Source: an uncultured Bacteroidota bacterium
GTDB taxonomy: Bacteria > Bacteroidota > Bacteroidia > Chitinophagales > LD1
Length of the DNA stretch: 46,472 bases
Assembly (NCBI GenBank): GCA_903889265.1
Contig: CAISWS010000403.1
Location: 1-46,472, forward strand
Reading direction: 5' to 3'
Position numbers and translations under genes: made by a program. The notes beneath the pieces were generated by a model. It was not told the origin of the DNA. It ran no database searches and worked only from the letters and a program-made list of their open reading frames with translations. Shown one piece after another: positions 610-43,478 of the stretch (its first letter is position 1; every line of letters begins with the position of its first letter).

Positions 610-835
610 AAGTGAGAAACTTTAATTGTGTTTGCTTCGCTATTTTCACCTCTTTGCTGATAGTCGCAGCTGATTTTGCTCAGAATAAAAGGCCCCACGA
701 GGGTAAACCAATTTAATTTCCCGGTTAATATGCAAACAAAAACTAAAATCAGTTAAAAGCTTTTGGGTGACATTAAGCTATGGTACTTTCAGGCAGTCAA
801 ACGCTGTAAATTGCCTAACCAATAAATCTGTAATC

Positions 836-1744
836 ATGAAAAAAGCATTTTACCTCATTTTCTTTTCGGCTTTGTTAGCGCCTGTATCAGGATGGGCAAC
901 AGACGGCACCGCACCTGCTCAGCACGGCCCCAATACCGCAGTTAAAAAATATATAAAGGAAACAGTAATGCCGGTTCTGATTCAAAAAAGGCAACAGTTT
1001 GACCGCGAGTTAAGCGCCGCTGAAAAAACCGAAATTGCAGATTGCAGGGCAGCCCTTAAACAACTGCAAAACCTGCACCACGATTGGAAACATGAAACTA
1101 AAGGCGAAGGCGATAACATACCTGCCCCCGGATATGAAAATGGTGGCCGCAATTCAAACCCTGCCTTCGCGCAACGTAAAGCAATCATGGAGCGCCTGCT
1201 GGCCATAGCCGATAAACACAGTAATTCATTACAGGATATCAAAACCCAACTGGAACCTAACCGGAAACAATGGATGGAAGACCTTAAAAAATTGCAGCCG
1301 GTAATTGAGGATGCTAAATCAGATAACCAGTATTATGGCGAAAGGCATATGGAACATGGCCCCGCTGCGTTTTTAAATCAGCATCATTTAGCAGCAGTCC
1401 ATTTTTTATTATTGCCCGCCACTCCTGAGGAAAATGTATCAGGCGAATTAAAATCAGAAAATGTTGAAGCAGCCCCTGTGGCAACTGGAATAAATGCAAT
1501 CACCCTGCCCTCTTTCGAAGTAATGCCTAACCCGGCAACCAATGATATACAAGTGCGCAGCAATATTCTGCCTGCAACCAATCAGCTAAAAATTGTTGAC
1601 CTGCAGGGAAAGGAAGTATTAAGCCTTGAAAATGTACAGGCAGCGCAGCACCTGGATGTAAGCCAGCTGCCAAGCGGCACTTACCTTGTTCAGATAAAAA
1701 GCGGCAGCCAGGTGATTAGCAAAAAAATCGTCATAAACAGATAA
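836..1744 (+). CDS. secreted protein with T9SS type A (Por) C-terminal sorting domain
   Basis: The ORF track starts at GTG 767. The internal ATG at 836 gives a clean signal peptide, MKKAFYLIFFSALLAPVSGWA. The last ~80 aa (MPNPATNDIQV...VDLQGKEV...LPSGTYLVQIKSG...KKIVI) fit the type A T9SS sorting-domain pattern. The N-terminal part is helical and of unknown function. Confidence 0.75.
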   Translation: MKKAFYLIFFSALLAPVSGWATDGTAPAQHGPNTAVKKYIKETVMPVLIQKRQQFDRELSAAEKTEIADCRAALKQLQNLHHDWKHETKGEGDNIPAPGYENGGRNSNPAFAQRKAIMERLLAIADKHSNSLQDIKTQLEPNRKQWMEDLKKLQPVIEDAKSDNQYYGERHMEHGPAAFLNQHHLAAVHFLLLPATPEENVSGELKSENVEAAPVATGINAITLPSFEVMPNPATNDIQVRSNILPATNQLKIVDLQGKEVLSLENVQAAQHLDVSQLPSGTYLVQIKSGSQVISKKIVINR

Positions 1745-11319: not shown

Positions 11320-13080
11320 ATGAGGCGTTTGTTTGTATTGTTTATCTGTGCAATGGAAGTTTTGTGGCTCAGCGCACAGGTAAATCCAAAACCCGGCGCC
11401 AGGCTCAACTATAACCAAATTATGTTTGAGTGCGAAAAAGTGAAAGGGGCTGGCATATACATTTTTCAATTGACTGAAGATACAACCAGGGCCTCCTTTG
11501 GTAAGGTGTTGCTTGAACAAAAAGATTCCTCTAATGCGACCCTTATCAGCGGTTTAAAATTTGGACAAAAATACCAATGGCGGTGTGCAGGTGTTGTAAA
11601 AGGCCAGCCAACCATGTGGAAAGGCCCCTGGCTTTTTGAAATTTCGGCCGACTCGTTACTTCATTACGGTCTTATGTCTTTCAATGTAATAAAAAACGAG
11701 GGGTCCGATGCCGGTGGTTTGATTATCAACGACTGCTCGCATAGTATAGTTGACAGAAATGGAAACCTGGTGTGGTATCTGCCCAAAGTAAAGTGGCATC
11801 CGGTAATGAATAAAAAGACGATGGAAATTAAGCCACAGATATTTGACCTGAGGTTAACACCTTACGGAACGGTAACTTATCTGGCAAACAATATTGCCAC
11901 CGAAACCGATATTGACGGTAACAAGCTATGGGGTGCACCCGATGACGGCCAGGTTTCTGGCAGTAACACGGAGGCTTATAACCACGATTTTAAGCGCCTG
12001 GCCGATGGCCATTATATGGTATTGGGGGGTGAGCAATGGCGAAAACTTCCCGAATACAAAGACACTACAACTGTTATCAGGAAATATCCATCAAGAAAGG
12101 TTATAGATGGCCATGAATATGGGGAGGTTGAACTACCCACCGTAATTGAATATGATAGAAAAGGAAAGGTGGTTTGGAGCTGGAAAAGTGAAAGTTATGT
12201 CGACCCCGATGTATTTGACACCACCCGGGCGCTTTTTGAACGAAAGCCACACGTAAATGCTTTTAGCGTTGATAAGAATAATGAATTTGTTTACGTTGGT
12301 TTCCGCAACACCAGCCGAATTATTAAAATAGAAAAGAAAACCGGTAAAGTTGTTGATTGCTGGGGTGATATATCATCGGCCCATGAGCCAGCTAAATTTG
12401 TGGGTTTACACAGACAGCATGACGCTAATATATTGGATGATGGAACCATTGCCGTTTTTAATAACAACGATTATCCCGGGCTGGATAGTTTTTCAAGCGT
12501 ACTGCTTATTTCACAAAAACCAGAAGACAGTGTCAGGAATTACATAGCCTGGAGGTTTGACTGCGATCTCAAAACGTTAAACCAACACAATGAAAGAAAC
12601 GGAGGCAATGTTGACCAGCTAAAAAACGGCAACTTTTTAGTATGCATGGGTAATATGAACCGCATATTTGAAGTAACCACTGATAAAAAGGTAATATGGG
12701 ACGCCGCCATGGCCCCCGATGGAAAGGCTGGCAATACCTTTTTTCACCGGCTTTACCGGGCTCATTACATTTCATCATTGTACCCCTGCTATTTCACCTT
12801 CGCCACTAATGAGGATGTGCTAACAGCCGGCATTCCTCACCTGCATTTAAAAATATTTAATAAGGGCAGCGAAAGCGATACCTACCAGGTGAAATTAAAT
12901 TCAGCTTCAGGTAATAGCCTGGCGGATATTACCTCAGCTGCCGTACCTGGCAATAGATCAGTTAACTTCGATATAAAATCAAACCACCAGCTTAAAGCCG
13001 GCGACCTCGTGGAAATTGAAGTGAGTTCAAAAACAAATCCGGATTTTGTACGAAGAAGCATGTTGACGGTAGTTAAATAA
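11320..13080 (+). CDS. aryl-sulfate sulfotransferase (ASST)-like secreted beta-propeller protein
   Basis: 586 aa with signal peptide MRRLFVLFICAMEVLWLSAQ. An N-terminal ~100-aa beta-sandwich-like module is followed by blades with HD motifs (YNHDFKRLADGHYMV, HRQHDANILDDGTIAVFNNN, NGGNVDQLKNGNFLVC), as remembered for the Arylsulfotran families. Not HMM-verified. Confidence 0.55.
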   Translation: MRRLFVLFICAMEVLWLSAQVNPKPGARLNYNQIMFECEKVKGAGIYIFQLTEDTTRASFGKVLLEQKDSSNATLISGLKFGQKYQWRCAGVVKGQPTMWKGPWLFEISADSLLHYGLMSFNVIKNEGSDAGGLIINDCSHSIVDRNGNLVWYLPKVKWHPVMNKKTMEIKPQIFDLRLTPYGTVTYLANNIATETDIDGNKLWGAPDDGQVSGSNTEAYNHDFKRLADGHYMVLGGEQWRKLPEYKDTTTVIRKYPSRKVIDGHEYGEVELPTVIEYDRKGKVVWSWKSESYVDPDVFDTTRALFERKPHVNAFSVDKNNEFVYVGFRNTSRIIKIEKKTGKVVDCWGDISSAHEPAKFVGLHRQHDANILDDGTIAVFNNNDYPGLDSFSSVLLISQKPEDSVRNYIAWRFDCDLKTLNQHNERNGGNVDQLKNGNFLVCMGNMNRIFEVTTDKKVIWDAAMAPDGKAGNTFFHRLYRAHYISSLYPCYFTFATNEDVLTAGIPHLHLKIFNKGSESDTYQVKLNSASGNSLADITSAAVPGNRSVNFDIKSNHQLKAGDLVEIEVSSKTNPDFVRRSMLTVVK

Positions 13081-20677: not shown

Positions 20678-21592
20678 ATGGTGAATAAAATCATAAGGTC
20701 CGTTTTTTTTGGCAACTATTTTATAGGGGTGCTGGCTATTGCTTTGTCGTTAGAAACCGTTATTCAACATCGCCTGCCTTTTAATTCCATTGCATATTAT
20801 GCCCTGCTTTTTTGCGGCACTATCATGTATTATACCTATGCGTATGCGGGGGTGCTCCAATCCTATTCTACAGATAATCCCCGCTCGGTCTGGTATCAGC
20901 AACATCAGGCACTGGTAAGGTTTAGCCAGATATCTTTATTGCTGCTTTGCTGCATTTTCGGGGTCAGGGAGTTGTTGAATACTATTGCAAACCTGCGCTC
21001 ATTACCCTGGATATACTGGCTGATAATGGTTGCCATTGGCATGGCTGGTATTTTATATTACGGGCTACTACCAGGCGCACTGGTAAAACTAAACCTGCGC
21101 AATACCGGTTGGCTAAAAGCATTTGTAATCGGATTTGTCTGGGCCGGGTGTGTAAGCCTTTTACCCATCATTGTACTCCAGCTCGAACAAGGCGCTTATT
21201 CAGCTGACCCTGTTCTTGTAGTGTGGCTCTTTATTAAAAACTGGATGTTCTGCACAGTAAACGCCATTATGTTTGACATGAAAGATTATGCCGATGACAC
21301 CAACAAACAACTAAAAACCTTTGTGGTCCGGTTCGGGCTTCGCAATACTATACTTTTTGTATTAACACCCTTATGTTTGATAGGCATCTTTTTTACGCTG
21401 ATTTTTGCACTTTACAGGTGCTTTACTTTTTTACCTGTGCTGTTTAATGTGCTGCCCTTTTTGTTGCTACTGGCGGTAACCTATACCATGCAGCGCCAAA
21501 AGGATATTTTCTTCTACCTTATAGTGATTGATGGCCTGGTATTTATAAAAGCAATTTGCGGAATTGCGGGCATGGCTTTTGTTGCAGGTTAA
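20678..21592 (+). CDS. polytopic membrane protein, UbiA prenyltransferase superfamily-like (only the second Asp-rich motif is recognisable)
   Basis: 304 aa with ~8 hydrophobic helices. NAIMFDMKDYADDTNKQLKTFVVRFG resembles the UbiA second motif (D..D...D...kT....G). No canonical NxxxDxxxD first motif was found. Confidence 0.4.
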   Translation: MVNKIIRSVFFGNYFIGVLAIALSLETVIQHRLPFNSIAYYALLFCGTIMYYTYAYAGVLQSYSTDNPRSVWYQQHQALVRFSQISLLLLCCIFGVRELLNTIANLRSLPWIYWLIMVAIGMAGILYYGLLPGALVKLNLRNTGWLKAFVIGFVWAGCVSLLPIIVLQLEQGAYSADPVLVVWLFIKNWMFCTVNAIMFDMKDYADDTNKQLKTFVVRFGLRNTILFVLTPLCLIGIFFTLIFALYRCFTFLPVLFNVLPFLLLLAVTYTMQRQKDIFFYLIVIDGLVFIKAICGIAGMAFVAG

Positions 21593-21614
21593 AATCAACA
21601 TTTTAAAATAAATT

Positions 21615-22241
21615 ATGGCTGCCAACTACGACAAAATTGCAAAGGTTTACGACCTGTTAAGCCGTATGGTTTATGGCAATCATATCCGTAAATCGCAGGT
21701 GTGCCTTTTGAAGTACATCCCGGCTGGCAGTTGTATCTTAATTGTAGGGGGAGGCACAGGTTGGATATTGGAAGAAATAACAAATCAATTTAATGCCGGC
21801 CTTACAATTGATTATGTCGAATCTTCCTCTCAAATGATAACCCTTTCAAAGAAAAAATGGCATGGGGATAACCACGTAAGCTTTATTAACCTGCCTATAG
21901 AAAATTTTACGGCCGGCCATTTGTACGATGTAGTATTAACCCCATTTTTGTTTGATAATTTTGATGCCGCAAAAGCCGGACTGTTATTTAACAATATGCA
22001 CGGGCAATTAAAAACCAAAGGTATCTGGCTTTACGCCGATTTCGTTTATATCGAAAACGAAAGCCCCGTATGGCAAAAAATACTGCTAAAAACCATGTAC
22101 CTTTTTTTCCGCCTTACCAGCAATATTGAAACCAACCAACTGGAAAATATGGAAAGCAGTTTTAATAACCGTTATCAAAAAATATTTGAAAGCTGGTTTT
22201 ATGGCAGATTCATCAGGTCCCAGGCTTATCAAAAACTTTAA
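21615..22241 (+). CDS. class I SAM-dependent methyltransferase
   Basis: Motif I ILIVGGGTGW. 208 aa. Lies 22 nt downstream of the UbiA-like gene on the same strand. Confidence 0.8.
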   Translation: MAANYDKIAKVYDLLSRMVYGNHIRKSQVCLLKYIPAGSCILIVGGGTGWILEEITNQFNAGLTIDYVESSSQMITLSKKKWHGDNHVSFINLPIENFTAGHLYDVVLTPFLFDNFDAAKAGLLFNNMHGQLKTKGIWLYADFVYIENESPVWQKILLKTMYLFFRLTSNIETNQLENMESSFNNRYQKIFESWFYGRFIRSQAYQKL

Positions 22242-23168: not shown

Positions 23169-23537
23169 CTACTTGCCGAAAAACATTTTCAGGGCGGTTA
23201 ACATCATAAATCCGGCAAATAATTTTTTCATGATATCAACCGGCAGGGAAATTGCCAGTTTGGAACCAAACCAGCCGCCAAAAATAAAAGCAGCCGCTAT
23301 CACAAGGGCATATTTAATGTCCAGGTACCCGGCTTTATAATAATTCATGGCCGCAAGGATACCAATGGGTGGTAACATAACTGCCACACTGGTACCCTGT
23401 GCCTCTTTCGGCCCCAGGTTAAGCAACATTATCAGCGCAGGCACAATAATAAGTCCTCCGCCAACACCAAACATACCGCCCAGCACACCCGCTGCAATGC
23501 CAATAAGAATTAAAACAAAAAGAGTATATGTATCCAT
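23169..23537 (-). CDS. half-size TauE/SafE-family anion exporter
   Basis: ATG at 23537; the ORF track starts at 23585. 122 aa with 4 TM helices. GGMFGVGGGLIIVPAL and GTSVAVMLP motifs are typical of TauE/SafE. Confidence 0.7.
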   Translation of the reverse strand: MDTYTLFVLILIGIAAGVLGGMFGVGGGLIIVPALIMLLNLGPKEAQGTSVAVMLPPIGILAAMNYYKAGYLDIKYALVIAAAFIFGGWFGSKLAISLPVDIMKKLFAGFMMLTALKMFFGK

Positions 23538-23642
23538 AATTTTGATTTTAAAGCTAAAATCGGCAAAATCAGAATAACAACACACCGGCTTGGCTAACCG
23601 CTGGCCAGAAGTTGTACACCGGTTGACACACCTTTATTGGCA

Positions 23643-24077
23643 TTACTTTCCTCCTAAAATAAAAGTAGTTATCTGTTCGGTTTCAACTGTTCTTTCGCAC
23701 AGCAGGTTTAAAAGCATATCGAAACTTTTAAGATCAGCATCGTCTATTTCAGAATAGTTAAATATGTAAGTAAAAAGGGCTTCATAACCGGTGTTCCCGG
23801 TGCTGTTGATATGGTCCATCAGTTCGCCTGAATCGTCTTTTACATCCAGGGTGCAATTGCGCAGGCCCTCCCAGTTGGTATAAGCATGCAACACTATAGT
23901 ATCTGTTTTTAGCAGGGTATCCAGTTTAAGAGTAGGTGCATCGGCAAAGGTAGAGGTGGCCACCAGTTTACTATTCAGATAAATATCAACTCTATCCAAA
24001 CCTGCACAAGCAAACTGCGAATGCACGGCACAAGGGAAAATAAAAAGCAGTATCACAAAGTGCAAAAATAGCCTCAT
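23643..24077 (-). CDS. small secreted protein, tandem paralog A (unknown family)
   Basis: 144 aa with a signal peptide. Shares a collinear pattern with the next two genes (LDRV.IYLN.KL, DT[IL]V..A, GL.N.T.DVKDD.G, F.Y.FN). Confidence 0.65.
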   Translation of the reverse strand: MRLFLHFVILLFIFPCAVHSQFACAGLDRVDIYLNSKLVATSTFADAPTLKLDTLLKTDTIVLHAYTNWEGLRNCTLDVKDDSGELMDHINSTGNTGYEALFTYIFNYSEIDDADLKSFDMLLNLLCERTVETEQITTFILGGK

Positions 24078-24079
24078 GC

Positions 24080-24514
24080 TTATTTTTTGGGAATCATAAT
24101 AATTGCAATAGTGGGCGGTGAAAGATTACGGATGGGGTCTGCATTCAAAAAAACCTGTATAGACATTACTTTGACCGCGTCAATTTTTTTTATGTTAAAA
24201 ACATATTCAAAATCCGCTGAGTTGTTGCTGCTGTTCATATCCTGAATCCTCTCAATAGGCACACCTGTATCATCTTTTACGTCAATACTTGAATTGCCGA
24301 GGCCACCCAAATCAGTACGTGCTTTAAAAACAAGTGTATCGCCATCCTTTATATTATCAATGTGTACCACACCGCTTTCATCGGCGCGCCAGGTACCTGC
24401 CAGCTTGTTGTTGAGAAAAACGAAAACGCGGTCTAACTCGTCATAGCGGTAAGCTGGTGCCAACAGTGAGTTGAAAGCAAAACATAGTATAAGACAAAAA
24501 CGCACCTTATTCAT
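24080..24514 (-). CDS. small secreted protein, tandem paralog B (unknown family)
   Basis: 144 aa with a signal peptide. Its stop is 2 nt from the start of paralog A. Motifs: LDRVFVFLNNKL, DTLVFKARTDLGGLGNSSIDVKDDTG, FEYVFN. Confidence 0.65.
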   Translation of the reverse strand: MNKVRFCLILCFAFNSLLAPAYRYDELDRVFVFLNNKLAGTWRADESGVVHIDNIKDGDTLVFKARTDLGGLGNSSIDVKDDTGVPIERIQDMNSSNNSADFEYVFNIKKIDAVKVMSIQVFLNADPIRNLSPPTIAIIMIPKK

Positions 24515-24593
24515 AAACCCCTGTTTCTTTTAATAAAAAGAATACATCCGTAAGTTAAACAAACTTTGCGCCAAAACCGGAGATAAAACGGAC

Positions 24594-25037
24594 TTAGTGC
24601 CTGGTATCTAAAAAAATAAGCGCTACATTATGCGGCTCAGGGTCGTTATCCTGGTGTACATCAAGGATAACCTGAAACCGGCGGTCCTTCATTTTTTTTA
24701 CATTTTCCCGGTTCAGCACGTATATAAAAGTAGCCTCACTTTCATCCTCCAACCTGGTCAACCTGGCAACTTCTTCTATTAAATTTCCTGCCATGTCCCA
24801 TAACTGAAGCGTGGACCTTTTTAAGCCCCCAGACCCTGAAATTGCCTGAAAAACAAGTGTATCCGGCGGAAACATCGTATCAATCTGCATGGTAATCGGC
24901 CGCTTATCTTTTGGCCAGCTTTGAAGCAAAAAATGGCCTACATAAATATTTACCTTTTCAACGCCTGCCGGTGGAGATGCCAATGTCCGCAAAACAAATA
25001 TCAACAATAAACCAATGCAACAGATAATCCTGACCAT
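24594..25037 (-). CDS. small secreted protein, tandem paralog C (unknown family, most divergent)
   Basis: 147 aa with a signal peptide. Motifs: VEKVNIYVGHFLL, DTLVFQAISGSGGLKRSTLQLWDMAGN, FIYVLN. Confidence 0.6.
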   Translation of the reverse strand: MVRIICCIGLLLIFVLRTLASPPAGVEKVNIYVGHFLLQSWPKDKRPITMQIDTMFPPDTLVFQAISGSGGLKRSTLQLWDMAGNLIEEVARLTRLEDESEATFIYVLNRENVKKMKDRRFQVILDVHQDNDPEPHNVALIFLDTRH

Positions 25038-25143: not shown

Positions 25144-27000
25144 TCATCTACCCGACTGTAACGGAAGCGAAACAATCCTTATAAAATCAGGATTTGTAAC
25201 TGATGAAATAATTACTTTAACCACATCCCCTCCAGCAGGTTTTTTATTGGGTGAGATTTCAAGATTTACCGACTTTCCACTTCGAATCACCTGCGTGGTT
25301 AACTCGTTTCCATAAGCCCCTTTAACTGAGGATATTTTAACCTTATAGCGATCCTCTTCTGTACCGGCATTGAAAATTCTCAGTTTACATGAGGGTGCTC
25401 TATCACATAAAATATCACTGTCGGTAGTTACACTAAAATAACAGGGATAAAGAGATGAAGTATAATATACCTGGTATAATGAATTTGGTTGCCACGCAGA
25501 AAAGTTGAGGTCATATTTCTCCATCTCGGCCTGCCATACTACTTTTTTTTCACGTGTAACTTCAAAAACCCTGTTCGTTTTACCCATACAAACCAACAGG
25601 TTGCCGTCTTTTAGCTCGTTAATACTTCCGCCACGCAGGCTGTGGTAAACAATACCATCAAACCTGCAGTCAAATTTCCAAAGCAACCTGCTTTTTGCAC
25701 TGTCCGAGAATATAACCACGCTTGAAGGCTCAACAGGTAAACCACTATTGGCAGATGGCAAATTGCCGTTACTAAAAACAGCTATAGAACCATCATGTAA
25801 CAAAGTTACATCGTGTTGCTTGGCAAAAAAACCGTCGCCATCATCAGCACCGCCCAGGGGCATAGCGGCACCCCAGCTGCGAATGGCTTTTCCGCTTTTC
25901 AAATCGATTTTTACAACCCTGCTTACATTGCGGAAACCGGCAAAAACAAAACCATTTTTTTCATCCACATCAAAAGCGTTTAAATGCCCGCCCGGCTCCC
26001 TGGCAAGAACACCTGAGTCAGGTGGTGCCTGCAACATGTTCTTTACCTCATCAAGCGTAAAGTAATTCTTCGAATTCCAACTCCATATCAATCTGCCCTT
26101 TTTATCAAACTCTTTAATGATATCGTACTGCAGGCCGGTTGCCCCGCCAATTATCCTCGGTGCGGTGGGTATCGACATCGGCGCGCCGGCAGGTTGCCGT
26201 TGTAATTCACCCACCGACAGGCTTGCAGGCGCCGCTGTTTGCGATGGATTGACAGTTGAAATAAGTGAAGGCGGAACCGGTTCGTTAATTTTACTTTGCA
26301 CCATATAATTGCCATCCGCAAGGCGTTTAAAACAATGGTTATAGCTATAAGGGTTAGGCATTAAACCTTTTACAGAGTCAGGTAATACGGTGTTTTTAGG
26401 TGCCATCCATAAAATATTACCATTCAAATCACTTTCAACGGCCTTTCTTCCTTCCAAAAAAGTAAGCGTTCCCGCCCGGGTAAGTTGCAAATCATTAATT
26501 TCCCCTTCGGGCCTGCCGGTTTCAGAATCCGGAGGTAAAAACCAAACAAAATTTCCGTTACGGTCAGCTATGGTACGCACTTCATCCAATACTAAAAGGC
26601 CGGTCTCATTTGCGTTGACATCATTATTTAAAACCCTTAACCGGTAAACACTTGTATCAGCATATTTATTTTTTAATATCTCAAAACTCATTGGTCCCAC
26701 CCAACCGGTTTGCCTGCCACTTTTTATTCCGGTGTATTTCCAGCTGTATTTCCTGCCAAATTGAAGGCCACTGATCATAGTAGCTGTTGAAGAATCAATA
26801 CTTTCAGCAACCTTAGATATTTTTTCATCTCCGTTATCTGCATACACTTGCAGCAAATAAACCTCTGCGCCTGGCACTTTTGGATGCTCGAACATAACCT
26901 GGGTATAATTCAGCTTAGCTCCTTCCGCAGGCCACATTTGTCCGTGCGCTAAATGCGAAACTACCAGTAGAAATAATAAAACTGCTCCTTTATAACCCAT
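25144..27000 (-). CDS. aryl-sulfate sulfotransferase (ASST)-like secreted beta-propeller protein, paralog 2
   Basis: 618 aa, collinear with 11320..13080. Shared motifs are GAKLNYTQVMFEHPKV vs GARLNYNQIMFECEKV, NHCFKRLADGNYMV, KQHDVTLLHDGSIAVFSNGN and SSLYPCYF. It has an extra Pro/Ala-rich insert (PVPPSLISTVNPSQTAAPASL...). Confidence 0.55.
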   Translation of the reverse strand: MGYKGAVLLFLLVVSHLAHGQMWPAEGAKLNYTQVMFEHPKVPGAEVYLLQVYADNGDEKISKVAESIDSSTATMISGLQFGRKYSWKYTGIKSGRQTGWVGPMSFEILKNKYADTSVYRLRVLNNDVNANETGLLVLDEVRTIADRNGNFVWFLPPDSETGRPEGEINDLQLTRAGTLTFLEGRKAVESDLNGNILWMAPKNTVLPDSVKGLMPNPYSYNHCFKRLADGNYMVQSKINEPVPPSLISTVNPSQTAAPASLSVGELQRQPAGAPMSIPTAPRIIGGATGLQYDIIKEFDKKGRLIWSWNSKNYFTLDEVKNMLQAPPDSGVLAREPGGHLNAFDVDEKNGFVFAGFRNVSRVVKIDLKSGKAIRSWGAAMPLGGADDGDGFFAKQHDVTLLHDGSIAVFSNGNLPSANSGLPVEPSSVVIFSDSAKSRLLWKFDCRFDGIVYHSLRGGSINELKDGNLLVCMGKTNRVFEVTREKKVVWQAEMEKYDLNFSAWQPNSLYQVYYTSSLYPCYFSVTTDSDILCDRAPSCKLRIFNAGTEEDRYKVKISSVKGAYGNELTTQVIRSGKSVNLEISPNKKPAGGDVVKVIISSVTNPDFIRIVSLPLQSGR

Positions 27001-35520: not shown

Positions 35521-36546
35521 TTACCCCACATCATACCAAACCCTGGTCCCTTCGCTGCAATTAGTACAAATATCAATCTCCGCCCTGCCTTTAAGCACGC
35601 GGCTGCGGAATGAGCGGTACAAATCGCTTTGCCATATTTGCGCAAACGATTTGGTGTGAAGGTCGCCTAACTGATGTTGCGCGTCTTTATCAAAGCAACA
35701 GGGCACTATTTTGCCATCCCAGGTTATAACGCAGCTATGCCATAATTTCCAGCAATGGTTCAGCAACTCATTTTTGATTTGATATTCGCCCCTGCCGTTT
35801 TTTTTATATCTGGAATACTGCTCAATATCAGGCATCAGCGGGTTACCTTTTTTAAAATCATTTAGCTGCGCGGTTTTAAGCTTTACTTCATCAACACCCA
35901 GTTCCCTGGCAAGTTTTTTCACATCATCCAACTGGTGCTGATTAGGCCTTACCACTAAAAACTGAAAAATAATATGTGGTGTTTTTGATTTTAGTTCACG
36001 CCGCATCCCCACCAGGTTTTTAGTGCCTTCAATTACTTTTTCGAGGCTACCGCCCACCCGGTATTGTTCATAGGTTTCCTGAGTGGTACCATCAATTGAA
36101 ATGATAATACGGTCAAGGCCCGATTCTACCGTTTCCCTTGCCTTTCGCTCAGTTAAAAAATGGGCGTTGGTTGAGGTTACCGTGTAAATTTTTTTCCGCG
36201 CCGCATATTTTACCAGTTCCGGAAAACGCGGGTGCATATACGGTTCGCCCTGAAAATAGAAATACAGGTAAATCAGCTTCTCTCCTGTTTCATCTATCAG
36301 CCGTTTGTAAAAGTCGTAATCAAGGTTTCCTGTGGGCCGGGTAAAGGATTTCAAGCCACTTGGGCACTCCGGGCAACCCAGGTTACAACTGGTAGTAGGC
36401 TCAACCGAAACATTAAAAGGCATACCCCACTGCATAGGTTTGCCACTTTGCTTTGCCAGATAGTAAGAAGATAACACCATTGAGGCATTAGCTACTTTTG
36501 CCGGACTTAATTTCGATAAAAAATTGAAGGTGTCGTTTAGCTTCAC
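35521..36546 (-). CDS. radical SAM enzyme with C-terminal SPASM-type auxiliary cluster domain
   Basis: GTG start. CxxxCxxC (TSCNLGCPEC). C-terminal Cys-rich region HSCVITWDGKIVPCCFDKD...LGDL...IW...CTNC. Confidence 0.8.
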   Translation of the reverse strand: MKLNDTFNFLSKLSPAKVANASMVLSSYYLAKQSGKPMQWGMPFNVSVEPTTSCNLGCPECPSGLKSFTRPTGNLDYDFYKRLIDETGEKLIYLYFYFQGEPYMHPRFPELVKYAARKKIYTVTSTNAHFLTERKARETVESGLDRIIISIDGTTQETYEQYRVGGSLEKVIEGTKNLVGMRRELKSKTPHIIFQFLVVRPNQHQLDDVKKLARELGVDEVKLKTAQLNDFKKGNPLMPDIEQYSRYKKNGRGEYQIKNELLNHCWKLWHSCVITWDGKIVPCCFDKDAQHQLGDLHTKSFAQIWQSDLYRSFRSRVLKGRAEIDICTNCSEGTRVWYDVG

Positions 36547-36934: not shown

Positions 36935-37594
36935 TTACAGAAGCTTGTGCTTATGAACGAAATTTATAAGCTCAATTGTGTTATTTAAGTTCAGCTTTTC
37001 AAGAATGTTTTTCCTGTGCGTTTTAACAGTATGTTTACTTAAAAACAACTTCTTCGCTATATCCTCTGAGTTTAAACCCTGGGTAATCAGCTTAACTACC
37101 TCCAGCTCACGCTCCGAAATCTTTTGCTTTAACAAAAAAATATCGTCTTTATTGGTTTGCTCGTCAATTTCAGTTTTAATAACTGCCCCATCGCTTATAA
37201 ATGAGCCATTATTGCCTCTAGCCATAATCAGGCGCAGTTTTTTAGCCAGCTCAACCGACGATGTATATTTAAGCAACATGGCTGCCGCCCCGGCAGTCTT
37301 TATACGCTGGCGCATTTTATCATCATCATAGGTGGTAAGTGCCACTACCACAATATCAGGGTATTTCTCCCTTACCATAGCACAAGCTTTAAAGCCATCC
37401 ACAACCGGCATGTTTAAATCCATCAATACCAGGTGCGGCTGCATGGTGGTTAACATCTGCATCAGCTCCTCGCCGTTCGGGGCAATCCCCATCAGCTTAA
37501 AATCCTCCTGCTGTTCAAGCATTATGCCTATTCCTTCCGCCACAATAATCTGGTCGTCGGCAATAATAATCTGGGTGACTGATGAGGCTGACAT
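36935..37594 (-). CDS. response regulator, NarL/FixJ (LuxR HTH) family
   Basis: REC domain (IIIADDQ, LVLMDLNMP, VVALTTY) plus C-terminal HTH ISERELEVVKLITQGLNSEDIAKKLFLSKHTVKTHRKNILEKL. Confidence 0.9.
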   Translation of the reverse strand: MSASSVTQIIIADDQIIVAEGIGIMLEQQEDFKLMGIAPNGEELMQMLTTMQPHLVLMDLNMPVVDGFKACAMVREKYPDIVVVALTTYDDDKMRQRIKTAGAAAMLLKYTSSVELAKKLRLIMARGNNGSFISDGAVIKTEIDEQTNKDDIFLLKQKISERELEVVKLITQGLNSEDIAKKLFLSKHTVKTHRKNILEKLNLNNTIELINFVHKHKLL

Positions 37595-37670: not shown

Positions 37671-38984
37671 TCAACTGATAGTTTCCCTGGCCTGTTTAGG
37701 CAACCTGATATAAAAATTACACCCCTTTCCGGGTTCCGATATACACCCTACATCCGCCCCAAAGGCATCCGCTATTTTTTTTACAATGGCCAGCCCCAAG
37801 CCCATAGAATTCTCTCCCTCTCTTGGTACAGATGAGGTTACACCGTATTGTTTAAAGAGCTTTTCCATATCCGCCGCTGATATGCCCGGCCCCGCGTCTA
37901 TTACACAAATCTCAACATAAGCGGGGGCATCGCTCAACTGCACCTTTACGTTACTTCCTGCCGGGCTGTATTTCATGCCATTTGAAATAAAATTTTCAAG
38001 TATTTGCTCCAGCCGGGCTTTATCAGTTTGTAAATAAATACGGTTTTCAGGCAATTGAGCAACTAAATTGATTTGTTTGCTCAAAGCCACAACACTGGCC
38101 TGCTTTAAGTAATTAGTAATTAAGTCGTTCAAACATAACTCAACGGGCTTTAATCCCATTTTGCCCGATTCAATCATATTTACATCCAGCAGGTTTTTAA
38201 TCAGCTCAAACATCCGGTCAGCAGAGGTTGCAATATGTTGCAGATAAATAGTGCGCTTCTCCGGCGTAGTTTTTTCATAACCTGAAATTTCGGCAAAGGC
38301 CCTTACACTGGCCAGGGGGTTTTTAAGGTCGTGGGCCACAATATTCAAAAAATTGTTTTTTTCAATATTCAGGCGTTCAAGTGCTTTATTCTGCTCTTCC
38401 AGCATTTTCTGTGCTTTTCTTTTTCCGCTTTCTGAAATAAAAATGATAAGGGAAATAATAGCTACCAAACCGCTTAATGATAAAAGGTTGAACAGGGGGT
38501 CCTTGGAAGTATCAAACCTCACAGCAAACCTTACACCCCGAAAATTAAAATAGGCAAAGCCACCTACAATAATCAGCGATATAACCAGCCAGGCCATACT
38601 GGCCCGTATGCCCTGCATCATCATGGCCACAGCAGGCAACATAATTATCCACGGCGCTACATTGGCGTTTCTGATACCCCCATCCCAATAAACCAGGCAT
38701 ATATAAACCACAGCAATGAGGGCGGTATAAACATTTGCCAGCGTAACCAAACCTAATCCCCATTTCAAAAGAAGCGGAAGAATCAGAAAAACCACGATGG
38801 AAATAACCATGGCTACGGCAAAATAATAACCACTCATGTAAATACTCATCAGGCAATATCCTAACGCAAAAAATGCAGTAAGAAAACAGGAATTAACAAA
38901 AAGCCGGTGTAACCTTAATGTTTCCGGGCTGGCATAGGCTGAATCCGGAACAAACCACGAAATCCACTCATCAAATTTATTCAT
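37671..38984 (-). CDS. sensor histidine kinase with an all-membrane (about 6-TM) input domain
   Basis: ~190-aa N-terminal polytopic region with no sizeable periplasmic loop, then a coiled coil. H-box NIVAHDLKNPL. ATPase boxes FISNGMKYSP, DAGPGI, GLGLAIVKK. Its ATG overlaps the upstream stop (ATGA at 38981-38984). Confidence 0.85.
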   Translation of the reverse strand: MNKFDEWISWFVPDSAYASPETLRLHRLFVNSCFLTAFFALGYCLMSIYMSGYYFAVAMVISIVVFLILPLLLKWGLGLVTLANVYTALIAVVYICLVYWDGGIRNANVAPWIIMLPAVAMMMQGIRASMAWLVISLIIVGGFAYFNFRGVRFAVRFDTSKDPLFNLLSLSGLVAIISLIIFISESGKRKAQKMLEEQNKALERLNIEKNNFLNIVAHDLKNPLASVRAFAEISGYEKTTPEKRTIYLQHIATSADRMFELIKNLLDVNMIESGKMGLKPVELCLNDLITNYLKQASVVALSKQINLVAQLPENRIYLQTDKARLEQILENFISNGMKYSPAGSNVKVQLSDAPAYVEICVIDAGPGISAADMEKLFKQYGVTSSVPREGENSMGLGLAIVKKIADAFGADVGCISEPGKGCNFYIRLPKQARETIS

Positions 38985-39655
38985 ACCTGCGGCGGATTAA
39001 CCTTATACAAAAGATATAGGTAATAGATATCAAACAAAGCACAAAAAACATACAAAGAAGTAAGAAAATAATTATCCGGGTATTTCGATTGAAACATAAC
39101 ACTTATAATGCCGGTACCCAAAAACTTGGCCCACCCGGTAAGTTTGCGGTTGCCCTCGTAACCCGGTATAAAAAACATGTAAATAAAGCAGATACTCATC
39201 ACCAGGTTTATAACATACGAATCAAGGGGGGCCATCGGCAGGTCATACTTCAGAATAAAACTGCACTGAACAAAAAAGCTGACCACCAACCCCACAATCA
39301 GAAACTTATGAAAATTCTGTTTAAAAAAGTCTACCCGCATTTGCTTGTATCCATACCGGTAAAGCGAAAATATAATGTAAGCGTCTAACACCATCCAGGC
39401 CCAGTAAGCTAATACCAGCGCGTTGCCCATATTAGGCACAAAAAATATGGCCGTGGTTATTTCGCAGCCAAAATTAAGGGTAATGGCAATGGCCGGTATA
39501 TCAAGTGTTTGCTTTTTGCCTATCCAATAAATGGTATTAATGTAGGCGGCCACCCAAAGCACCGCGCCGGTAGTAAATAACACAATTTGCGTTACTGTAT
39601 AATCAACCGTATTAAACCAGGGATGCGGGGTTTGTAAATACTCAAATATGGTCAT
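38981..39655 (-). CDS. 7-TM integral membrane protein, putative Pyr4/PaxB-like transmembrane terpene cyclase (isoprenoid-modifying)
   Basis: 224 aa with seven hydrophobic helices. LWVAAYINTIYWIGKKQTLDIPAIAITLNFGCE parallels the remembered W.INY...Y...K..TYG....P...N[FI][AS]WE block holding the catalytic Glu of Pyr4/PaxB/AusL. The last helix, FCALFDIYYLY, parallels the block holding the catalytic Asp. Recall-based alignment, not verified. Confidence 0.4.
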   Translation of the reverse strand: MTIFEYLQTPHPWFNTVDYTVTQIVLFTTGAVLWVAAYINTIYWIGKKQTLDIPAIAITLNFGCEITTAIFFVPNMGNALVLAYWAWMVLDAYIIFSLYRYGYKQMRVDFFKQNFHKFLIVGLVVSFFVQCSFILKYDLPMAPLDSYVINLVMSICFIYMFFIPGYEGNRKLTGWAKFLGTGIISVMFQSKYPDNYFLTSLYVFCALFDIYYLYLLYKVNPPQV

Positions 39656-39673: not shown

Positions 39674-41488
39674 TTATCCGAAAATAAGAGCAAACAAAGC
39701 CCTGAAAGCAAATTCAATTCCATAGGCCAGGCCCCAGAATATCATTAAAATTTTGAGCCACAATGGGGTTTTAGCTGCGTGTGTAAGGCCGCGGTTGTAT
39801 CGCCACAAATCGTACCATTTAAGCGGTAGCAACAGCCAGGGTTCAGTTAGCGGCCATATCTTACAATAAGGTTGGTTTTGCCCTGCCGCATCAATTATAC
39901 AATTAACGGCACGTCGCGCCGCTTCATTGGCCCCTTCCATGGTTGCCAGGTCAGTATTGGTGCGCACATAATCCGCCGCCAGAAAAAGGTTTTGAATATT
40001 GGAACTTGCGTTGGGCCGTAAGGTCCATGAATGCACAGTATTTACTAACAGCGGCTCCAGATTAAACAGCGCCTCATGGCTGCGGCTTTTGTCCTCCAAA
40101 GCCTTTTGGCCCGTTTCAGCATCATGGATATCGCTATCAATATAGTAATATTCAATCATGCTTTTATCCAGCACTTTTGCCCCGTTTATATTCAGGCTGC
40201 GCGATAGCTGTAGCCACACAAAATCAGCAATCTCCTGCCAGGTGCAATCCCTCGCCAGCTTCTCAGCACCGGTAACCGGGTCTTTAAAAGTAGTTTTCAA
40301 CCAGTCAGAGACATCAATAGAAATGATACTTTTCACCTTACCGTTGTAGCACTTACTCAAATCAAAATTTTTCCAGTATTGTGTTTGCGAAATAGAAGTA
40401 ACAGCCCACTCACTATCGCTGTAAATAACATGTCCGTCACTGATATTCACTTCCTGGTTCAGGTAAAACTGAATACCGTTCATCCAGCTTACACTTTTAG
40501 CCAGCGTGTGCAGGGAATCCAGCACATTGTCAGCGGCCACCATACCATGGCTCCTTCTCACCAGCGCAGCGGCTGCCTCAACCGGCACCGCCATAATGTA
40601 GTAATCAGCATTATCTTTTATTAACTGGCCGTTACCATCCTTTACGTGCACACCGCCAACAGCGGCACCGGTCATTTCAATCTTCTCTACCTCGTGGTTC
40701 AAATGATATTTAACCCCTTTTTGTTCCAGGTATTTGCTCCAGGGGTTCAGCCATTTATCATTGGTTGGGCCGTTTAAAACTCTGTCGGTGTTAACACCCG
40801 GTGTGGCCATGGTATACACCAGTTGCAAAAAGACATTGCCACCGGTTTTGGTACTTGCAAACTTAGCTTGCGCCGCAACCAGGGTACGCACCAGGCCCCC
40901 TGCCAGCAAATGCTGGTAGGTTTCGCTGTAATAATCAGCTTCCAGAAATTCCCACCAGCTTAACTTTTCGTACTCGTCCCTTCTCCGTTCTTTACAACTG
41001 GTGGCTAGTTCCAGCACCCGGTCTTCAAAAAACTTCCTTTCTTCGGCGGTTAAGCCGCTGTTTTTAAATTCGGTAATAAACTGAAAAAGCACTTTCCAAT
41101 CGGCAAAGCTGCGCGGAAAGTTGGCGATTGAAATAAGCGGTGGCTTATCATAGCGCGCCAGCATAATGCGGTGCGTGGGTGTAAGGTTGCCGTAACATCC
41201 GTTTTTCTGATACGGCTTACCAGGCCCTTCCTGGTAAGGTATGCGTTTCATGGTATCCGTAATGTGCTTGTAAAAGCCGGGGAAAAACCTGAACCCATGC
41301 TCACCCGGTAACGGGGTCCCTGTATCCTGTTGGCCACCGGGGTCCACATCTACCGACCGTGCTTTGCCGCCAACATAAGTGGGATTTTTATCGTATACAG
41401 TTACGTCAAATCCACGTTCAATTAATTCGTGTGCAGCGCTCATTCCTGCAACTCCTCCGCCTATAATTATTACTTTTCTCTGCTTCAT
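39674..41488 (-). CDS. FAD-dependent oxidoreductase of the amine-oxidase / phytoene-desaturase (CrtI/PDS-like) superfamily with C-terminal membrane helix
   Basis: Rossmann motif KVIIIGGGVAGMSAAHELIERGFDVTVYDK...YVGGKARS, then GEHGFRFFPGFY. C-terminal flavin-contact motif FLAADYVRTNTDLATMEGANEAARRAVN. Terminal hydrophobic segment LWLKILMIFWGLAYGIEFAFRALFALIF. 604 aa. Confidence 0.7.
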   Translation of the reverse strand: MKQRKVIIIGGGVAGMSAAHELIERGFDVTVYDKNPTYVGGKARSVDVDPGGQQDTGTPLPGEHGFRFFPGFYKHITDTMKRIPYQEGPGKPYQKNGCYGNLTPTHRIMLARYDKPPLISIANFPRSFADWKVLFQFITEFKNSGLTAEERKFFEDRVLELATSCKERRRDEYEKLSWWEFLEADYYSETYQHLLAGGLVRTLVAAQAKFASTKTGGNVFLQLVYTMATPGVNTDRVLNGPTNDKWLNPWSKYLEQKGVKYHLNHEVEKIEMTGAAVGGVHVKDGNGQLIKDNADYYIMAVPVEAAAALVRRSHGMVAADNVLDSLHTLAKSVSWMNGIQFYLNQEVNISDGHVIYSDSEWAVTSISQTQYWKNFDLSKCYNGKVKSIISIDVSDWLKTTFKDPVTGAEKLARDCTWQEIADFVWLQLSRSLNINGAKVLDKSMIEYYYIDSDIHDAETGQKALEDKSRSHEALFNLEPLLVNTVHSWTLRPNASSNIQNLFLAADYVRTNTDLATMEGANEAARRAVNCIIDAAGQNQPYCKIWPLTEPWLLLPLKWYDLWRYNRGLTHAAKTPLWLKILMIFWGLAYGIEFAFRALFALIFG

Positions 41489-41876
41489 GGAATAATTGTG
41501 AGGTAAGATAGAATTAGTTATTTATTCAGGCAAAACATTCTTTACAAACTAATTATATCCATGTATTATAACTACCGGAATTCCGTGGTCTAATTAAATG
41601 GACATTTAATTCAATCTCCCTCTGTAAACCAGATTTTGAAATCCCCTCTTTAAAGGAGTAACAAAATTGGCAGAAAAATATCAGGAGACACCATAAAACA
41701 GATGAAATGGTTGTAATAAATAACTATATACTTATCTGAACGATATACCTTTAGCCACATAATGGCTTGCAGTATAGCACAAAAGCGCATAATAATATTG
41801 CCTTATGCCGGCAGATCTTTTACATTTTTTGAAAAGAAGCCCCGCTTTTGCCACTATATTTACCTCTCAATTTGAA

Positions 41877-43478
41877 ATGAACAAGACTCTGGCTTTACTC
41901 TTTATTATTGCGTTTTCAAAAACCGGCAATGCACAGGCGCCGCTTAAAACGCACCCCTATTCCACGCAAAGCGAGGAGGGCTTTTCGCCCTGCCGAGATA
42001 CTTTTTCAATTCTTAAAAACCATTTGTCGTACGATATCGGTATCATACTCCCATCATGGCTACCGGTTGTAGACCGCAACTACGTGGGTATTATGGAGGG
42101 CAAAGTTATATGCAACCCCACCGATGGCAGCGATGGGCCGCATGTGTATGAGGAGGACCTGCCGTTCTATCACTATTCGCATGATGTTAATTTTGATATT
42201 ATACCTGATAGAACCGAGGATAACCGGTTTACCAATTTGTTACCCCTGCTGGTATACAAAAGGCAACCACAAAACGATACGGTAATGAATACCGTTATGC
42301 ATTGCGAATGGGAATGCGGCCTTGCCATGGCCAACCGGATTAACCCCATCAGGGCCGATAATGATGCCGGGCGAAGCGGAGGATTTTTCAGTGCAGGCCA
42401 CGAGATAGGGGATATCATCTGGAACTGGCCTGCACCGGGCGACTGGGCGCACGTTGAAGGTAACTATGTATGGGACCGCGGCCATCCACCGGCTAATGCC
42501 GAACTGCACCCCCTTAGGTTTGTTGCTTTTAAACGCGCATTGCCCGACAGAATAATTATTGGCGACAGCTCGATAAAGTTTGCCACCCGCATTGATATTT
42601 TTGCCAGTGGCGACGGCGGGGCTTTGCTGAACAACCGGTACAACGCACCCAAGTTTGTGCGCCGGGTAAATATGAGTTCGAAAGATTATGAGTTTACTGC
42701 CAAAATTGATCTGCCGCGCCCGTCGCCAAAAGCACATCTTAAATACGTTTTAACGACCCAGAAAGGGGATAACTTTACGGTTGGTGAAATGATTGAGTTG
42801 AACGATGACTCGGCTACGGCGCGTGTTATAATACCATGGAATTCGAAAAACGCAAACGACCTGGAAATTTACGCCCGTACCCTGGATGTTTACTGGGATG
42901 AGGGTAGCGGGGTTGCAGCAACACAGCCGGTTGATATTTATAAAGTAACGCTTACGAACATCCATTTCAGATACCTGGATGAGATACTTTCGAAAGCCGA
43001 AGTGCGTCTTTTTGCCAGCGTGGGCAACGACTGGATTTTTGTAAACGACTTTTTTCCGAAAAAGGGAAAAATACTGTCCAAGGGCCTGGGCAAAACATAC
43101 AAACACCACTGGACTTTGAATAACCAGTTTATTGTTTGTGTTCCGCGCGGTAAAAGCTTTAGGTTAAACATGAGCGGTTGGGAAGTAGATGGTGTAGATA
43201 TGCTTTTTGGTAAATTGCTCGACCCGGGTTCGCCGTGTAACCGCAAAACCAAACATACCTTCAAAGCCAGCTCTTTTACCTTTGCCATGTTTATGCGCGG
43301 ATGCCTTGACGATAATTACGGCGAGATAACCAAACTACACAATTACAATAACCTTGGTAAAACTGATCAGTTTAAAAACTCCCCCCAAAGTGGTGTCAAC
43401 GATGACCCCTGCCCGTTCAGCAAATACCCGCTAAAGGACAGGGTATTTCTGACTTACACCATCGAAAAAATAAATTAA
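41877..43478 (+). CDS. secreted hypothetical protein (533 aa, no recognisable family)
   Basis: ATG at 41877 gives the signal MNKTLALLFIIAFSKTGNAQA; the ORF track starts at 41805. The long ORF has no motif I can assign. A near-consensus -7 box, TATATTTA, lies at 41855-41862. Confidence 0.65.
   Translation: MNKTLALLFIIAFSKTGNAQAPLKTHPYSTQSEEGFSPCRDTFSILKNHLSYDIGIILPSWLPVVDRNYVGIMEGKVICNPTDGSDGPHVYEEDLPFYHYSHDVNFDIIPDRTEDNRFTNLLPLLVYKRQPQNDTVMNTVMHCEWECGLAMANRINPIRADNDAGRSGGFFSAGHEIGDIIWNWPAPGDWAHVEGNYVWDRGHPPANAELHPLRFVAFKRALPDRIIIGDSSIKFATRIDIFASGDGGALLNNRYNAPKFVRRVNMSSKDYEFTAKIDLPRPSPKAHLKYVLTTQKGDNFTVGEMIELNDDSATARVIIPWNSKNANDLEIYARTLDVYWDEGSGVAATQPVDIYKVTLTNIHFRYLDEILSKAEVRLFASVGNDWIFVNDFFPKKGKILSKGLGKTYKHHWTLNNQFIVCVPRGKSFRLNMSGWEVDGVDMLFGKLLDPGSPCNRKTKHTFKASSFTFAMFMRGCLDDNYGEITKLHNYNNLGKTDQFKNSPQSGVNDDPCPFSKYPLKDRVFLTYTIEKIN

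Follow-up and report, generated by a model that had tools for sequence, protein, structure and literature searches.

A homologue of the Pyr4-type transmembrane terpene cyclases is encoded in a 46,472-nucleotide contig of an uncultured Bacteroidota bacterium (Chitinophagales lineage LD1; assembly GCA_903889265.1, contig CAISWS010000403.1; the whole stretch is called the window here). Its gene lies in an operon, between a gene for a flavin adenine dinucleotide (FAD)-dependent oxidoreductase and a gene for a sensor histidine kinase whose N terminus has six transmembrane (6-TM) helices (Table 1). The same arrangement of FAD gene, cyclase and 6-TM sensor, with interchangeable outputs behind the sensor, is conserved at other loci, and this coupling appears to be undescribed. 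We propose, at a probability of roughly one in three, that it represents a widespread system in which an oxidoreductase and a Pyr4-type cyclase generate a cyclic terpenoid, the native ligand of a 6-TM sensor that serves a kinase or a class III adenylate/guanylate cyclase. The parts of this proposal differ in strength. To judge from its genomic context, the locus probably supplies the input to a signalling module based on lipids and is not a natural-product cluster, and the flavoprotein/cyclase pair is quite likely to be functionally coupled to the sensor; that the product of the enzymes is the ligand of the sensor is suggested tentatively. The downstream sensor gene, overlooked by an earlier note on this DNA, is a partner as conserved as the flavoprotein.

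The window protein is almost certainly a true member of the Pyr4-type family, as profile comparisons indicate. A Pfam scan with hmmscan (E <= 1) matched PF25129 ("Pyr4-like transmembrane terpene cyclases," Pyr4-TMTC) as the sole family, and the match was full length, with residues 14-218 on profile positions 10-223 of 227 (23.2 bits, E 6.3e-5). A homology search returned 131 relatives at 49% identity or above, and 975 clusters reached E <= 1e-3 in a profile search, run without filters, of 1.84 billion cluster representatives. A precomputed PF25129 (PF25129.2) match is attached to nearly all homologues, the homologue of Lacibacter sp. H407 bears the NCBI name "transmembrane-type terpene cyclase," and more distant relatives that are fusion proteins score 50-78 bits on PF25129. 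Moreover, hhalign aligned a profile of the 42-sequence bacterial clade with 16 fungal Pyr4-family sequences over their full length, at a probability of 99.6%, an E value of 2.4e-24 and 207 aligned columns. The fungal references were taken from Supplementary Data 7 of Tang & Matsuda 2024 (PMC11109268), the study in which one of them, MosB, was characterized. The Pfam match, the names of the homologues and the alignment thus bear out the resemblance to Pyr4 and PaxB that the earlier note had drawn, and the profile-profile comparison that it had proposed has been run with a clear outcome. Family membership as such is not new, as PF25129 and the NCBI name already cover close homologues.

Other identities have little to recommend them. 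CrtYc/CrtYd and CruF, like the window protein, are of a small intramembrane acid-base type, and they act on isoprenoid end groups beside carotenoid desaturases. A small multi-pass protein with intramembrane acids beside a carotenoid-desaturase-like gene could be taken for a CruF-type hydratase or a CrtYc/Yd-type lycopene cyclase. No similarity to them was detectable, as the corresponding families (PF04240, PF18916 and TIGR03462) gave no match at E <= 1 in the Pfam and NCBIfam scans, and no NCBIfam model matched the protein at all. A SWEET- or PQ-loop-like transporter might also be considered. The best Foldseek matches of the predicted structure in the PDB were SWEET transporters, the PQ-loop protein cystinosin and the KDEL receptor (template modelling score [TM-score] of ~0.5, E ~0.04, probability 0.99 to 1.0), and matches this weak were not taken as homology. 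No Pyr4-type structure was found by Foldseek, but the copy of the PDB that was searched contains none of the Pyr4 family to compete with them, and PDB sequence searches with the single cyclase and with the clade profile matched no solved structure. Given PF25129 as the one Pfam match and the full-length alignment with the fungal proteins, we regard all of these identities as extremely improbable.

The structure and the key residues of the protein agree with those of the family. An AlphaFold2 model built on 42 homologues (mean predicted local distance difference test score [pLDDT] of 91.3; predicted template modelling score of 0.86) contains seven long helices, at residues 21-48, 55-70, 78-105, 115-136, 141-161, 171-191 and 196-216, and a hydropathy scan gave the same topology. 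The open reading frame (ORF) call, the scan and the model thus agree with the 224 residues and seven helices described earlier. We infer that the N terminus is outside and the C terminus inside, because of the distribution of lysine and arginine in the loops and because relatives carry cytoplasmic domains after helix 7. Glu65 lies near the end of helix 2 (L-N-F-G-C-E) and Asp209 lies within helix 7 (A-L-F-D-I-Y-Y-L-Y), where the earlier note had placed an intramembrane Glu and Asp, and Asp91, in helix 3, is a third conserved intramembrane acidic residue. The block that was said to precede the Glu, Y..IY...KK.T...P, is present as Y38-INT-I42-Y43-WIG-K47-K48-Q-T50-LDI-P54, except that its first gap is three residues and not two.

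In the alignment with the fungal proteins, N61 and E65 fall on fungal N69 and E73 of the N-I-G-W-E block, D91 falls on the Asp of the W-x-x-I-D motif (D97), K177 falls on a nearly invariant Arg, and D209 falls on MosB D228. The active-site residues of Pyr4 itself have been named as E63 and D218 (PMC6486709). The spacing from E73 to D228 in MosB is 155 residues, equal to that from E63 to D218 in Pyr4, and we therefore infer, by way of MosB and the spacing, that E65 would correspond to Pyr4 E63 and D209 to Pyr4 D218. The two acids thus mirror the Glu and the last-helix Asp of the family, as had been suggested. The earlier reading had also been made to depend on conservation of the Glu and the Asp among orthologues, and E65 and D209, together with D91, are invariant across 121 of them. 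Among 149 representatives of the deep family, Glu is found at the E65 column in 143, Asp at the D91 column in 141 and Asp at the D209 column in 127, with 18 gaps at the last; the remaining representatives are nearly all gapped at these columns, probably as fragments. Judged by its sequence, the window protein is probably a catalytically active cyclase.

The upstream partner resembles phytoene desaturase (PDS). Its Pfam matches are Amino_oxidase and NAD_binding_8 (N-terminal FAD Rossmann motif). A profile search against the PDB ranked rice PDS (5mog) first, with an E value of 3.7e-9, and Foldseek did the same with an AlphaFold2 model of the flavoprotein (pLDDT of 85.7; E 6.7e-24, TM-score of 0.79 to 0.80 on the target), followed by oleate hydratase and a carotenoid desaturase at ~1e-18 to 1e-19. 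The neighbour had been called PDS-like, and so different from the oxygenase that accompanies the fungal cyclases, which is of the p-hydroxybenzoate hydroxylase (PHBH) type; both statements stand. With the plant and cyanobacterial enzymes (PDS/CrtP), the flavoprotein shares the fold, the FAD Rossmann motif and a presumed membrane association, and enzymes of that family, of which ZDS and HpnE are relatives, act on long polyisoprenoid hydrocarbons. It differs from 5mog in having 16% identity, ~100 extra residues and a C-terminal helix (residues 576-603) that probably anchors it to the membrane. Because its NCBIfam scores are far under the cut-offs (HpnE, 84 bits against 283; ZDS, 57 against 622; PDS, 43 against 569), we take the flavoprotein, on its sequence, not to be an orthologue of any of the three.

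The operon runs on one strand and reads FAD gene, 18 nt, cyclase, a 4-nt overlap, kinase, 76 nt and response regulator, the overlap being an ATGA in which the kinase start codon overlaps the cyclase stop codon. We scanned one genome per species for related loci and obtained 54, of which 46 are orthologous (cyclase identity of at least 45%). The flavoprotein gene lies directly upstream on the same strand in 35 of the 36 orthologous loci with enough flank, and a homologue of the N-terminal region of the kinase lies directly downstream in 37 of 39, at a distance of -3 to +36 nt from the cyclase. When the neighbouring ORFs of the 54 loci were clustered, no other gene family was present in more than five loci, and no prenyltransferase, polyprenyl synthase, phytoene synthase or squalene synthase recurred near the module. 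In the window, the genes of a meroterpenoid cluster (prenyltransferase or polyprenyl synthase, scaffold synthase, PHBH-type epoxidase or cytochrome P450) do not flank it. A UbiA-like ORF (20678-21592) was rejected as a prenyltransferase partner, being 18 kb off, under the Pfam threshold and absent from related loci. Thus, at least one large group of loci outside biosynthetic clusters is not really standalone.

Carriers of the orthologous arrangement include Chitinophagaceae, Cyclobacteriaceae (Algoriphagus and Aquiflexum), Saprospiraceae, metagenome-assembled genomes (MAGs) of Flavobacteriales, Kapaibacteria and high-GC MAGs labelled Acidimicrobiia. Among cultured strains, Lacibacter sp. H407, Ilyomonas limi 17mud1-8, Algoriphagus aestuarii KCTC 42199 and Aquiflexum lacus CUG 91378 are carriers. 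The Acidimicrobiia group accounts for nine loci (L006, L010, L015 to L018, L021, L023 and L030), with cyclases of ~51 to 59% identity and sensor proteins of high-GC amino acid composition, which suggests either transfer between phyla or misbinning.

How the sensor is conserved differs from how the enzymes are conserved. Conservation is confined to the first 200 to 275 residues of the downstream protein, which correspond to its 6-TM domain, and the output behind it varies. Output domains were counted in 32 downstream ORFs: 25 have a class III nucleotide cyclase, 3 have a kinase H-box and 4 are truncated or unclassified. The Guanylate_cyc output was confirmed by the Pfam annotation of public contigs. 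The window has the kinase version (HisKA, E 6e-14; HATPase_c, E 5e-23; H-box HDLKNPL), and the LuxR/GerE-type response regulator behind it, which is also found behind the kinase in the close relatives L002 and L069, is presumed to be the cognate output of the module in this genome. Moreover, the partner follows the output, as a response regulator accompanies the kinase (window and L069) and proteins that bind cyclic nucleotides accompany the cyclase (L055, L056, L066 and L067). The 6-TM domain gave sub-threshold matches to MASE models (MASE6, E 0.12 to 2.3; MASE7, E 2.5; MASE11, E 7.7e-4 in one relative), and a word-indexed homology search with it returned one fragment only.

A Pycsar-like role, in defence against phages by way of cyclic nucleotides, was also considered for the module. 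At one locus (L068, 8060-9896), a second nucleotide cyclase and a PycTM effector (96 bits by PADLOC) stand directly after the module, a patatin that binds cyclic nucleotides is encoded upstream, and the sensor-cyclases resemble PycC models at 39 to 51 bits. The resemblance to PycC is, however, what any class III cyclase gives, and the Pycsar-like pair is present in that one locus, from a metagenomic genome, probably by coincidence. PADLOC found no match for the cyclase or the kinase and matched the flavoprotein through its Rossmann motif only, and the window version signals via a conventional kinase and a LuxR regulator. The serine/threonine kinase and STAND domains of a giant partner in paralogous modules, described below, are common in defence proteins, but a role in defence nevertheless seems very improbable to us.

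The association of flavoprotein and sensor extends beyond the Pyr4-like clade. Many homologues of the flavoprotein (50 to 57% identity) are, unlike PDS, fusions of ~805 residues with a C-terminal DUF6989 (PF22497) membrane domain (for example L056, 8001-10427, and L057 to L059, 8001-10409; proteins P0340, P0364, P0296 and others). Directly after these fusions is a nucleotide cyclase with the same 6-TM domain (E 5e-55 and 1.5e-41), and no Pyr4-like gene is present. DUF6989 was considered as a divergent Pyr4-like domain, which was ruled out by hmmsearch and by hhalign (0.95%). DUF6989 thus has no relationship to the Pyr4-like clade and stands in for the cyclase at the same position, and the sensor-cyclase behind it makes the flavoprotein and the sensor the constant pair, with a middle membrane component that is replaceable. 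Of ten DUF6989 members, two matched the CrtYc/d lycopene-cyclase domain TIGR03462 (best E 0.011), a faint lead.

Pyr4-like proteins outside the orthologous group also combine with oxidoreductases and signalling enzymes, in other ways. In five loci (L047, L048, L050, L051 and L053), a paralogue of 25 to 34% identity stands between an MpaB/Lcp-type oxygenase (PF09995) and a further ORF, which is ~1,680 to 1,713 residues long in four of them and cut by the contig end in L051; the one scanned, in L050, has Ser/Thr-kinase, STAND, GAF and nucleotide-cyclase domains. A 255-residue ORF comes next in the modules with the ~1,700-residue ORF and is bestrophin-like in L050. In L054 (7923-9787), a Pyr4-like gene is followed by a PHBH-type FAD monooxygenase gene, with a cyclase-STAND protein nearby, and in L052 (7628-9901) a Pyr4-like match and a PHBH-type FAD monooxygenase domain share one ORF of 757 residues, an apparent fusion. 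These monooxygenases belong to the fungal-type epoxidase class and come from MAGs of Thermoanaerobaculia and Gemmatimonadales. In L049 a membrane cyclase comes after the Pyr4-like paralogue, in L062 a fusion of Pyr4-like and nucleotide-cyclase domains comes after an MpaB-type oxygenase, and a Pyr4-like/MpaB fusion lies beside an 898-residue nucleotide cyclase in L065. Finally, the Pyr4-like domain is itself the N-terminal part of fusions to HisKA-HATPase, GGDEF-EAL or Guanylate_cyc, joined by a soluble linker of ~250 residues without a Pfam match (proteins P0209, P0140, P0156 and P0197, in loci L063, L064 and L062; the long C-terminal region of P0197 has no Pfam match). Some cases have a common origin, but Pyr4-like domains have become associated with isoprenoid-type oxidoreductases and signalling enzymes separately at least four or five times.

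Fusions of this kind raise the possibility that the Pyr4-like protein is no longer an enzyme but a 7-TM lipid-binding co-receptor or scaffold, acting with the 6-TM sensor or with the fused outputs to detect a hydrophobic ligand. An N-terminal Pyr4-like domain ahead of HisKA-HATPase, GGDEF-EAL or a nucleotide cyclase is built like a 7-TM receptor module, one such fusion has no neighbouring oxidase, and the fold weakly resembles the 7-TM SWEET, PQ-loop and KDEL-receptor proteins. A receptor of this sort is nonetheless improbable in our view. Throughout the family, signalling fusions included, all three conserved acids (the catalytic pair and the third Asp) are kept, and the pairing with an isoprenoid-type oxidoreductase, be it PDS-like, MpaB/Lcp or a PHBH-type FAD monooxygenase, is near constant, which argues for a relationship of substrate and product.

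How the module might work can be outlined on the assumption that both enzymes are active. The membrane-associated flavoprotein would desaturate, oxidize or isomerize a polyisoprenoid that is already in the membrane, and a carotenoid- or squalene-like lipid or the side chain of a quinone is a candidate substrate. A housekeeping lipid is proposed because no prenyl-supply gene is conserved nearby, and long isoprenoid chains are proposed because of the hint from DUF6989, the resemblance of the flavoprotein to PDS in fold and the MpaB/Lcp and PHBH-type oxidases that take its place elsewhere. The cyclase would then protonate the lipid through its Glu/Asp pair, in class II-type fashion, and cyclize it. 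What the 6-TM domain of the sensor would read is the membrane-soluble terpenoid so formed, or else the flux through the two enzymes, and the sensor would then switch the kinase and response regulator in the window and the synthesis of cyclic AMP (cAMP) or cyclic GMP elsewhere. We speculate that the module may report the redox or oxygen status of the membrane, as O2 or the quinone pool is required by each of the three alternative types of oxidase, or else may be the source of a self-produced signal, a terpenoid autoinducer.

The main rival to a ligand-generating module is a regulated pathway for a structural lipid or pigment. By this account, the flavoprotein and the cyclase are an ordinary two-enzyme pair for a structural membrane terpenoid or pigment, such as a cyclized carotenoid- or squalene-derived lipid, and the kinase or nucleotide cyclase is the regulator of the cluster. 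A PDS-like enzyme followed by a cyclase is the logic of carotenoid pathways, and carotenoids are made by many Bacteroidota. The faint CrtYc/d hint in DUF6989 points the same way, as do the two loci in which the FAD and cyclase genes occur without a sensor. Phytoene or squalene synthase, polyprenyl synthase and prenyltransferase genes are, however, not conserved in the 54 loci. Moreover, the part of the sensor that stays with the enzymes from phylum to phylum is its membrane domain and not its output, translation of the genes is coupled, and in other lineages the cyclase domain is fused to signalling outputs, which would be unexpected for a pigment enzyme. We therefore consider a regulated lipid or pigment pathway rather unlikely, and the non-catalytic receptor and defence roles are less likely still.

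Several observations weigh against a ligand-generating module, some of them against its enzymology. The score of the cyclase on PF25129, 23.2 bits, is below the gathering cut-off of 27 bits, and the window protein has Cys64 where the N-x-x-W-E block has Trp. This missing Trp is the sole peculiarity of the clade, although Cys, Tyr or Phe takes its place in some fungal members too. Enzymes of the PDS family are desaturases and not epoxidases, so that preparation of a cyclase substrate by the flavoprotein is not straightforward. Other observations concern the link to the sensor. Two orthologous loci with room downstream, L003 and L046, lack the sensor, and therefore the enzyme pair can exist alone, while the fusion of cyclase and kinase in L063 has no adjacent oxidase. 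A sensor beside biosynthetic genes could be a mere cluster-situated regulator. The high counts in the orthologous clade reflect one inherited arrangement and not independent events. Beyond homology, the whole proposal rests on genomic context, and the clade has no characterized substrate, product or activity.

The proposed module can be compared with systems already known. Like the window cyclase, the fungal members of the family (Pyr4, PaxB, AusL, AndB, AscF and MosB) are ~225 to 250 residues long and have seven transmembrane helices, the Glu of N-x-x-[WC]-E, the last-helix Asp and a basic residue at the position of K177 (Arg in fungi), and acid-initiated, class II-like cyclization is presumed to be common to both. 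Identity is ~17%, and the Trp of NxxWE is not kept in the bacterial clade. Unlike fungal clusters, the window locus has no polyketide synthase, PaxC/UbiA prenyltransferase or PHBH-type epoxidase and instead has a PDS-like flavoprotein and a coupled sensor kinase. The bacterial cyclases XiaE (xiamycin), DmtA1/2 (drimentines), TylF (tolypodiol), GroF (gromomycins) and ZigF (zigralones) belong to the same family, and the characterized bacterial members demonstrate that the fold has cyclase activity in bacteria (PMC13307353). Their genes come from secondary-metabolite clusters, in Actinomycetota and cyanobacteria, whose prenyltransferase, polyprenyl synthase and P450 genes are all missing from the window type.

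Pyr4-type cyclases have been studied as fungal and actinobacterial natural-product tools, and homologues outside clusters have been set aside as probably nonbiosynthetic. In a recent survey (Kakumu & Helfrich, JACS 2026; PMC13307353), a profile built from XiaE, TylF, DmtA1/2 and two uncharacterized homologues yielded 1,107 bacterial candidates, of which 264 with terpenoid genes within 20 kb were kept and 843 were filtered out. The known set of that survey held six bacterial homologues, none from Bacteroidota; GroF was mentioned and ZigF characterized. Of the 264 candidates kept, 37 are from Bacteroidota and one is from Chitinophagaceae, and the absence of a characterized member among the 37 agrees with the earlier view of the family as essentially uncharacterized in this phylum. 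According to the supporting information, a biosynthetic role is unlikely for a Pyr4-like subset at "standalone loci," which was filtered out, and the window type belongs to this standalone class. Our literature search found nothing on DUF6989, on PF25129 or on Pyr4-type cyclases linked to signalling.

For the sensor, two comparisons are apt. The lipid-autoinducer type of system represented by CqsA/CqsS (CAI-1) has the same logic, in that genes for the possible synthesis of a hydrophobic molecule stand beside a 6-TM sensor, and differs in that its enzymes are of acyl type where those of the window are of isoprenoid type. The role of the 6-TM anchors of adenylate cyclases, such as that of Rv1625c, has been described as an open question (PMC4821796, PMC12414865). 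For these anchors, one 6-TM design can serve kinases and cyclases, and here it does so naturally, within one domain family. If the enzyme pair does make the ligand of the sensor, terpene cyclization would be tied to bacterial signal transduction, and a defined input to the cAMP signalling of Bacteroidota would be established. The module would then offer a tractable natural setting in which to ask what adenylate-cyclase 6-TM anchors respond to, and would be the first natural, genetically linked ligand-producing system for orphan nucleotide-cyclase membrane anchors. If the locus is merely a regulated pathway for a pigment or lipid, it would still add to the Pyr4 family a class of substrates and an oxidase partner that are both new.

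Table 1. The operon with the cyclase gene, its key codons and other features of the window
Feature	Position (nt)	Strand	Description
FAD-dependent oxidoreductase	39674..41488	-	604 aa; first gene of the operon; PDS-like fold; C-terminal hydrophobic helix, aa 576-603
Cyclase homologue	38981..39655	-	224 aa; ATG start; 7-TM
Glu65 codon	39461..39463	-	N61-F-G-C-E65; aligns with catalytic Glu (Pyr4 E63, MosB E73)
Asp91 codon	39383..39385	-	Helix 3; aligns with fungal W-x-x-I-D Asp (MosB D97)
Asp209 codon	39029..39031	-	Helix 7; aligns with catalytic Asp (Pyr4 D218, MosB D228)
Sensor histidine kinase	37671..38984	-	437 aa; 6-TM N terminus, HisKA (His218), HATPase_c
6-TM sensor domain of kinase	38415-38984	-	~aa 1-190
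LuxR/GerE-type response regulator	36935..37594	-	219 aa; Pfam Response_reg and GerE; receiver Asp59
Radical S-adenosylmethionine (SAM)/SPASM protein	35521-36546	-	Best NCBIfam model, tungsten-cofactor oxidoreductase maturase, 135 bits (cut-off 380)
ORF divergent from the operon	41805-43478	+	557 aa; no Pfam or NCBIfam match
Protein with Por_Secre_tail	767-1744	+	325 aa
Giant SprB-repeat proteins (two)	1967-6208, 6349-10857	-	1,413 and 1,502 aa; CHU_C type IX secretion signals
Arylsulfotransferase (ASST)-like protein	11320-13080	+	
Arylsulfotransferase (ASST)-like protein	25144-27000	-	
Weak UbiA-like ORF, then SAM methyltransferase	20678-22241	+	UbiA E 2e-7, sub-threshold
TauE/SafE sulfite-exporter fragment	23169-23585		Near ASST-like genes
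Three tandem ORFs	23643-25037	-	144-147 aa; no Pfam match

The remainder of the window has no terpenoid pathway genes. A scan for promoters and terminators gave counts equal to the shuffled expectation, and the scan does not cover Bacteroidota promoters. The radical SAM/SPASM gene lies downstream of the response regulator at a distance of 388 nt, and no substrate gene is obvious for it. It and the 557-residue ORF were considered as parts of the module and rejected, as they are common to close relatives only (L002 and L069 for the former, L001 and L002 for the latter). The proteins with SprB repeats, CHU_C signals and Por_Secre_tail indicate a gliding member of the Bacteroidota with a type IX secretion system. 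A TonB receptor is also encoded, and the gene content of the window is typical of the phylum.

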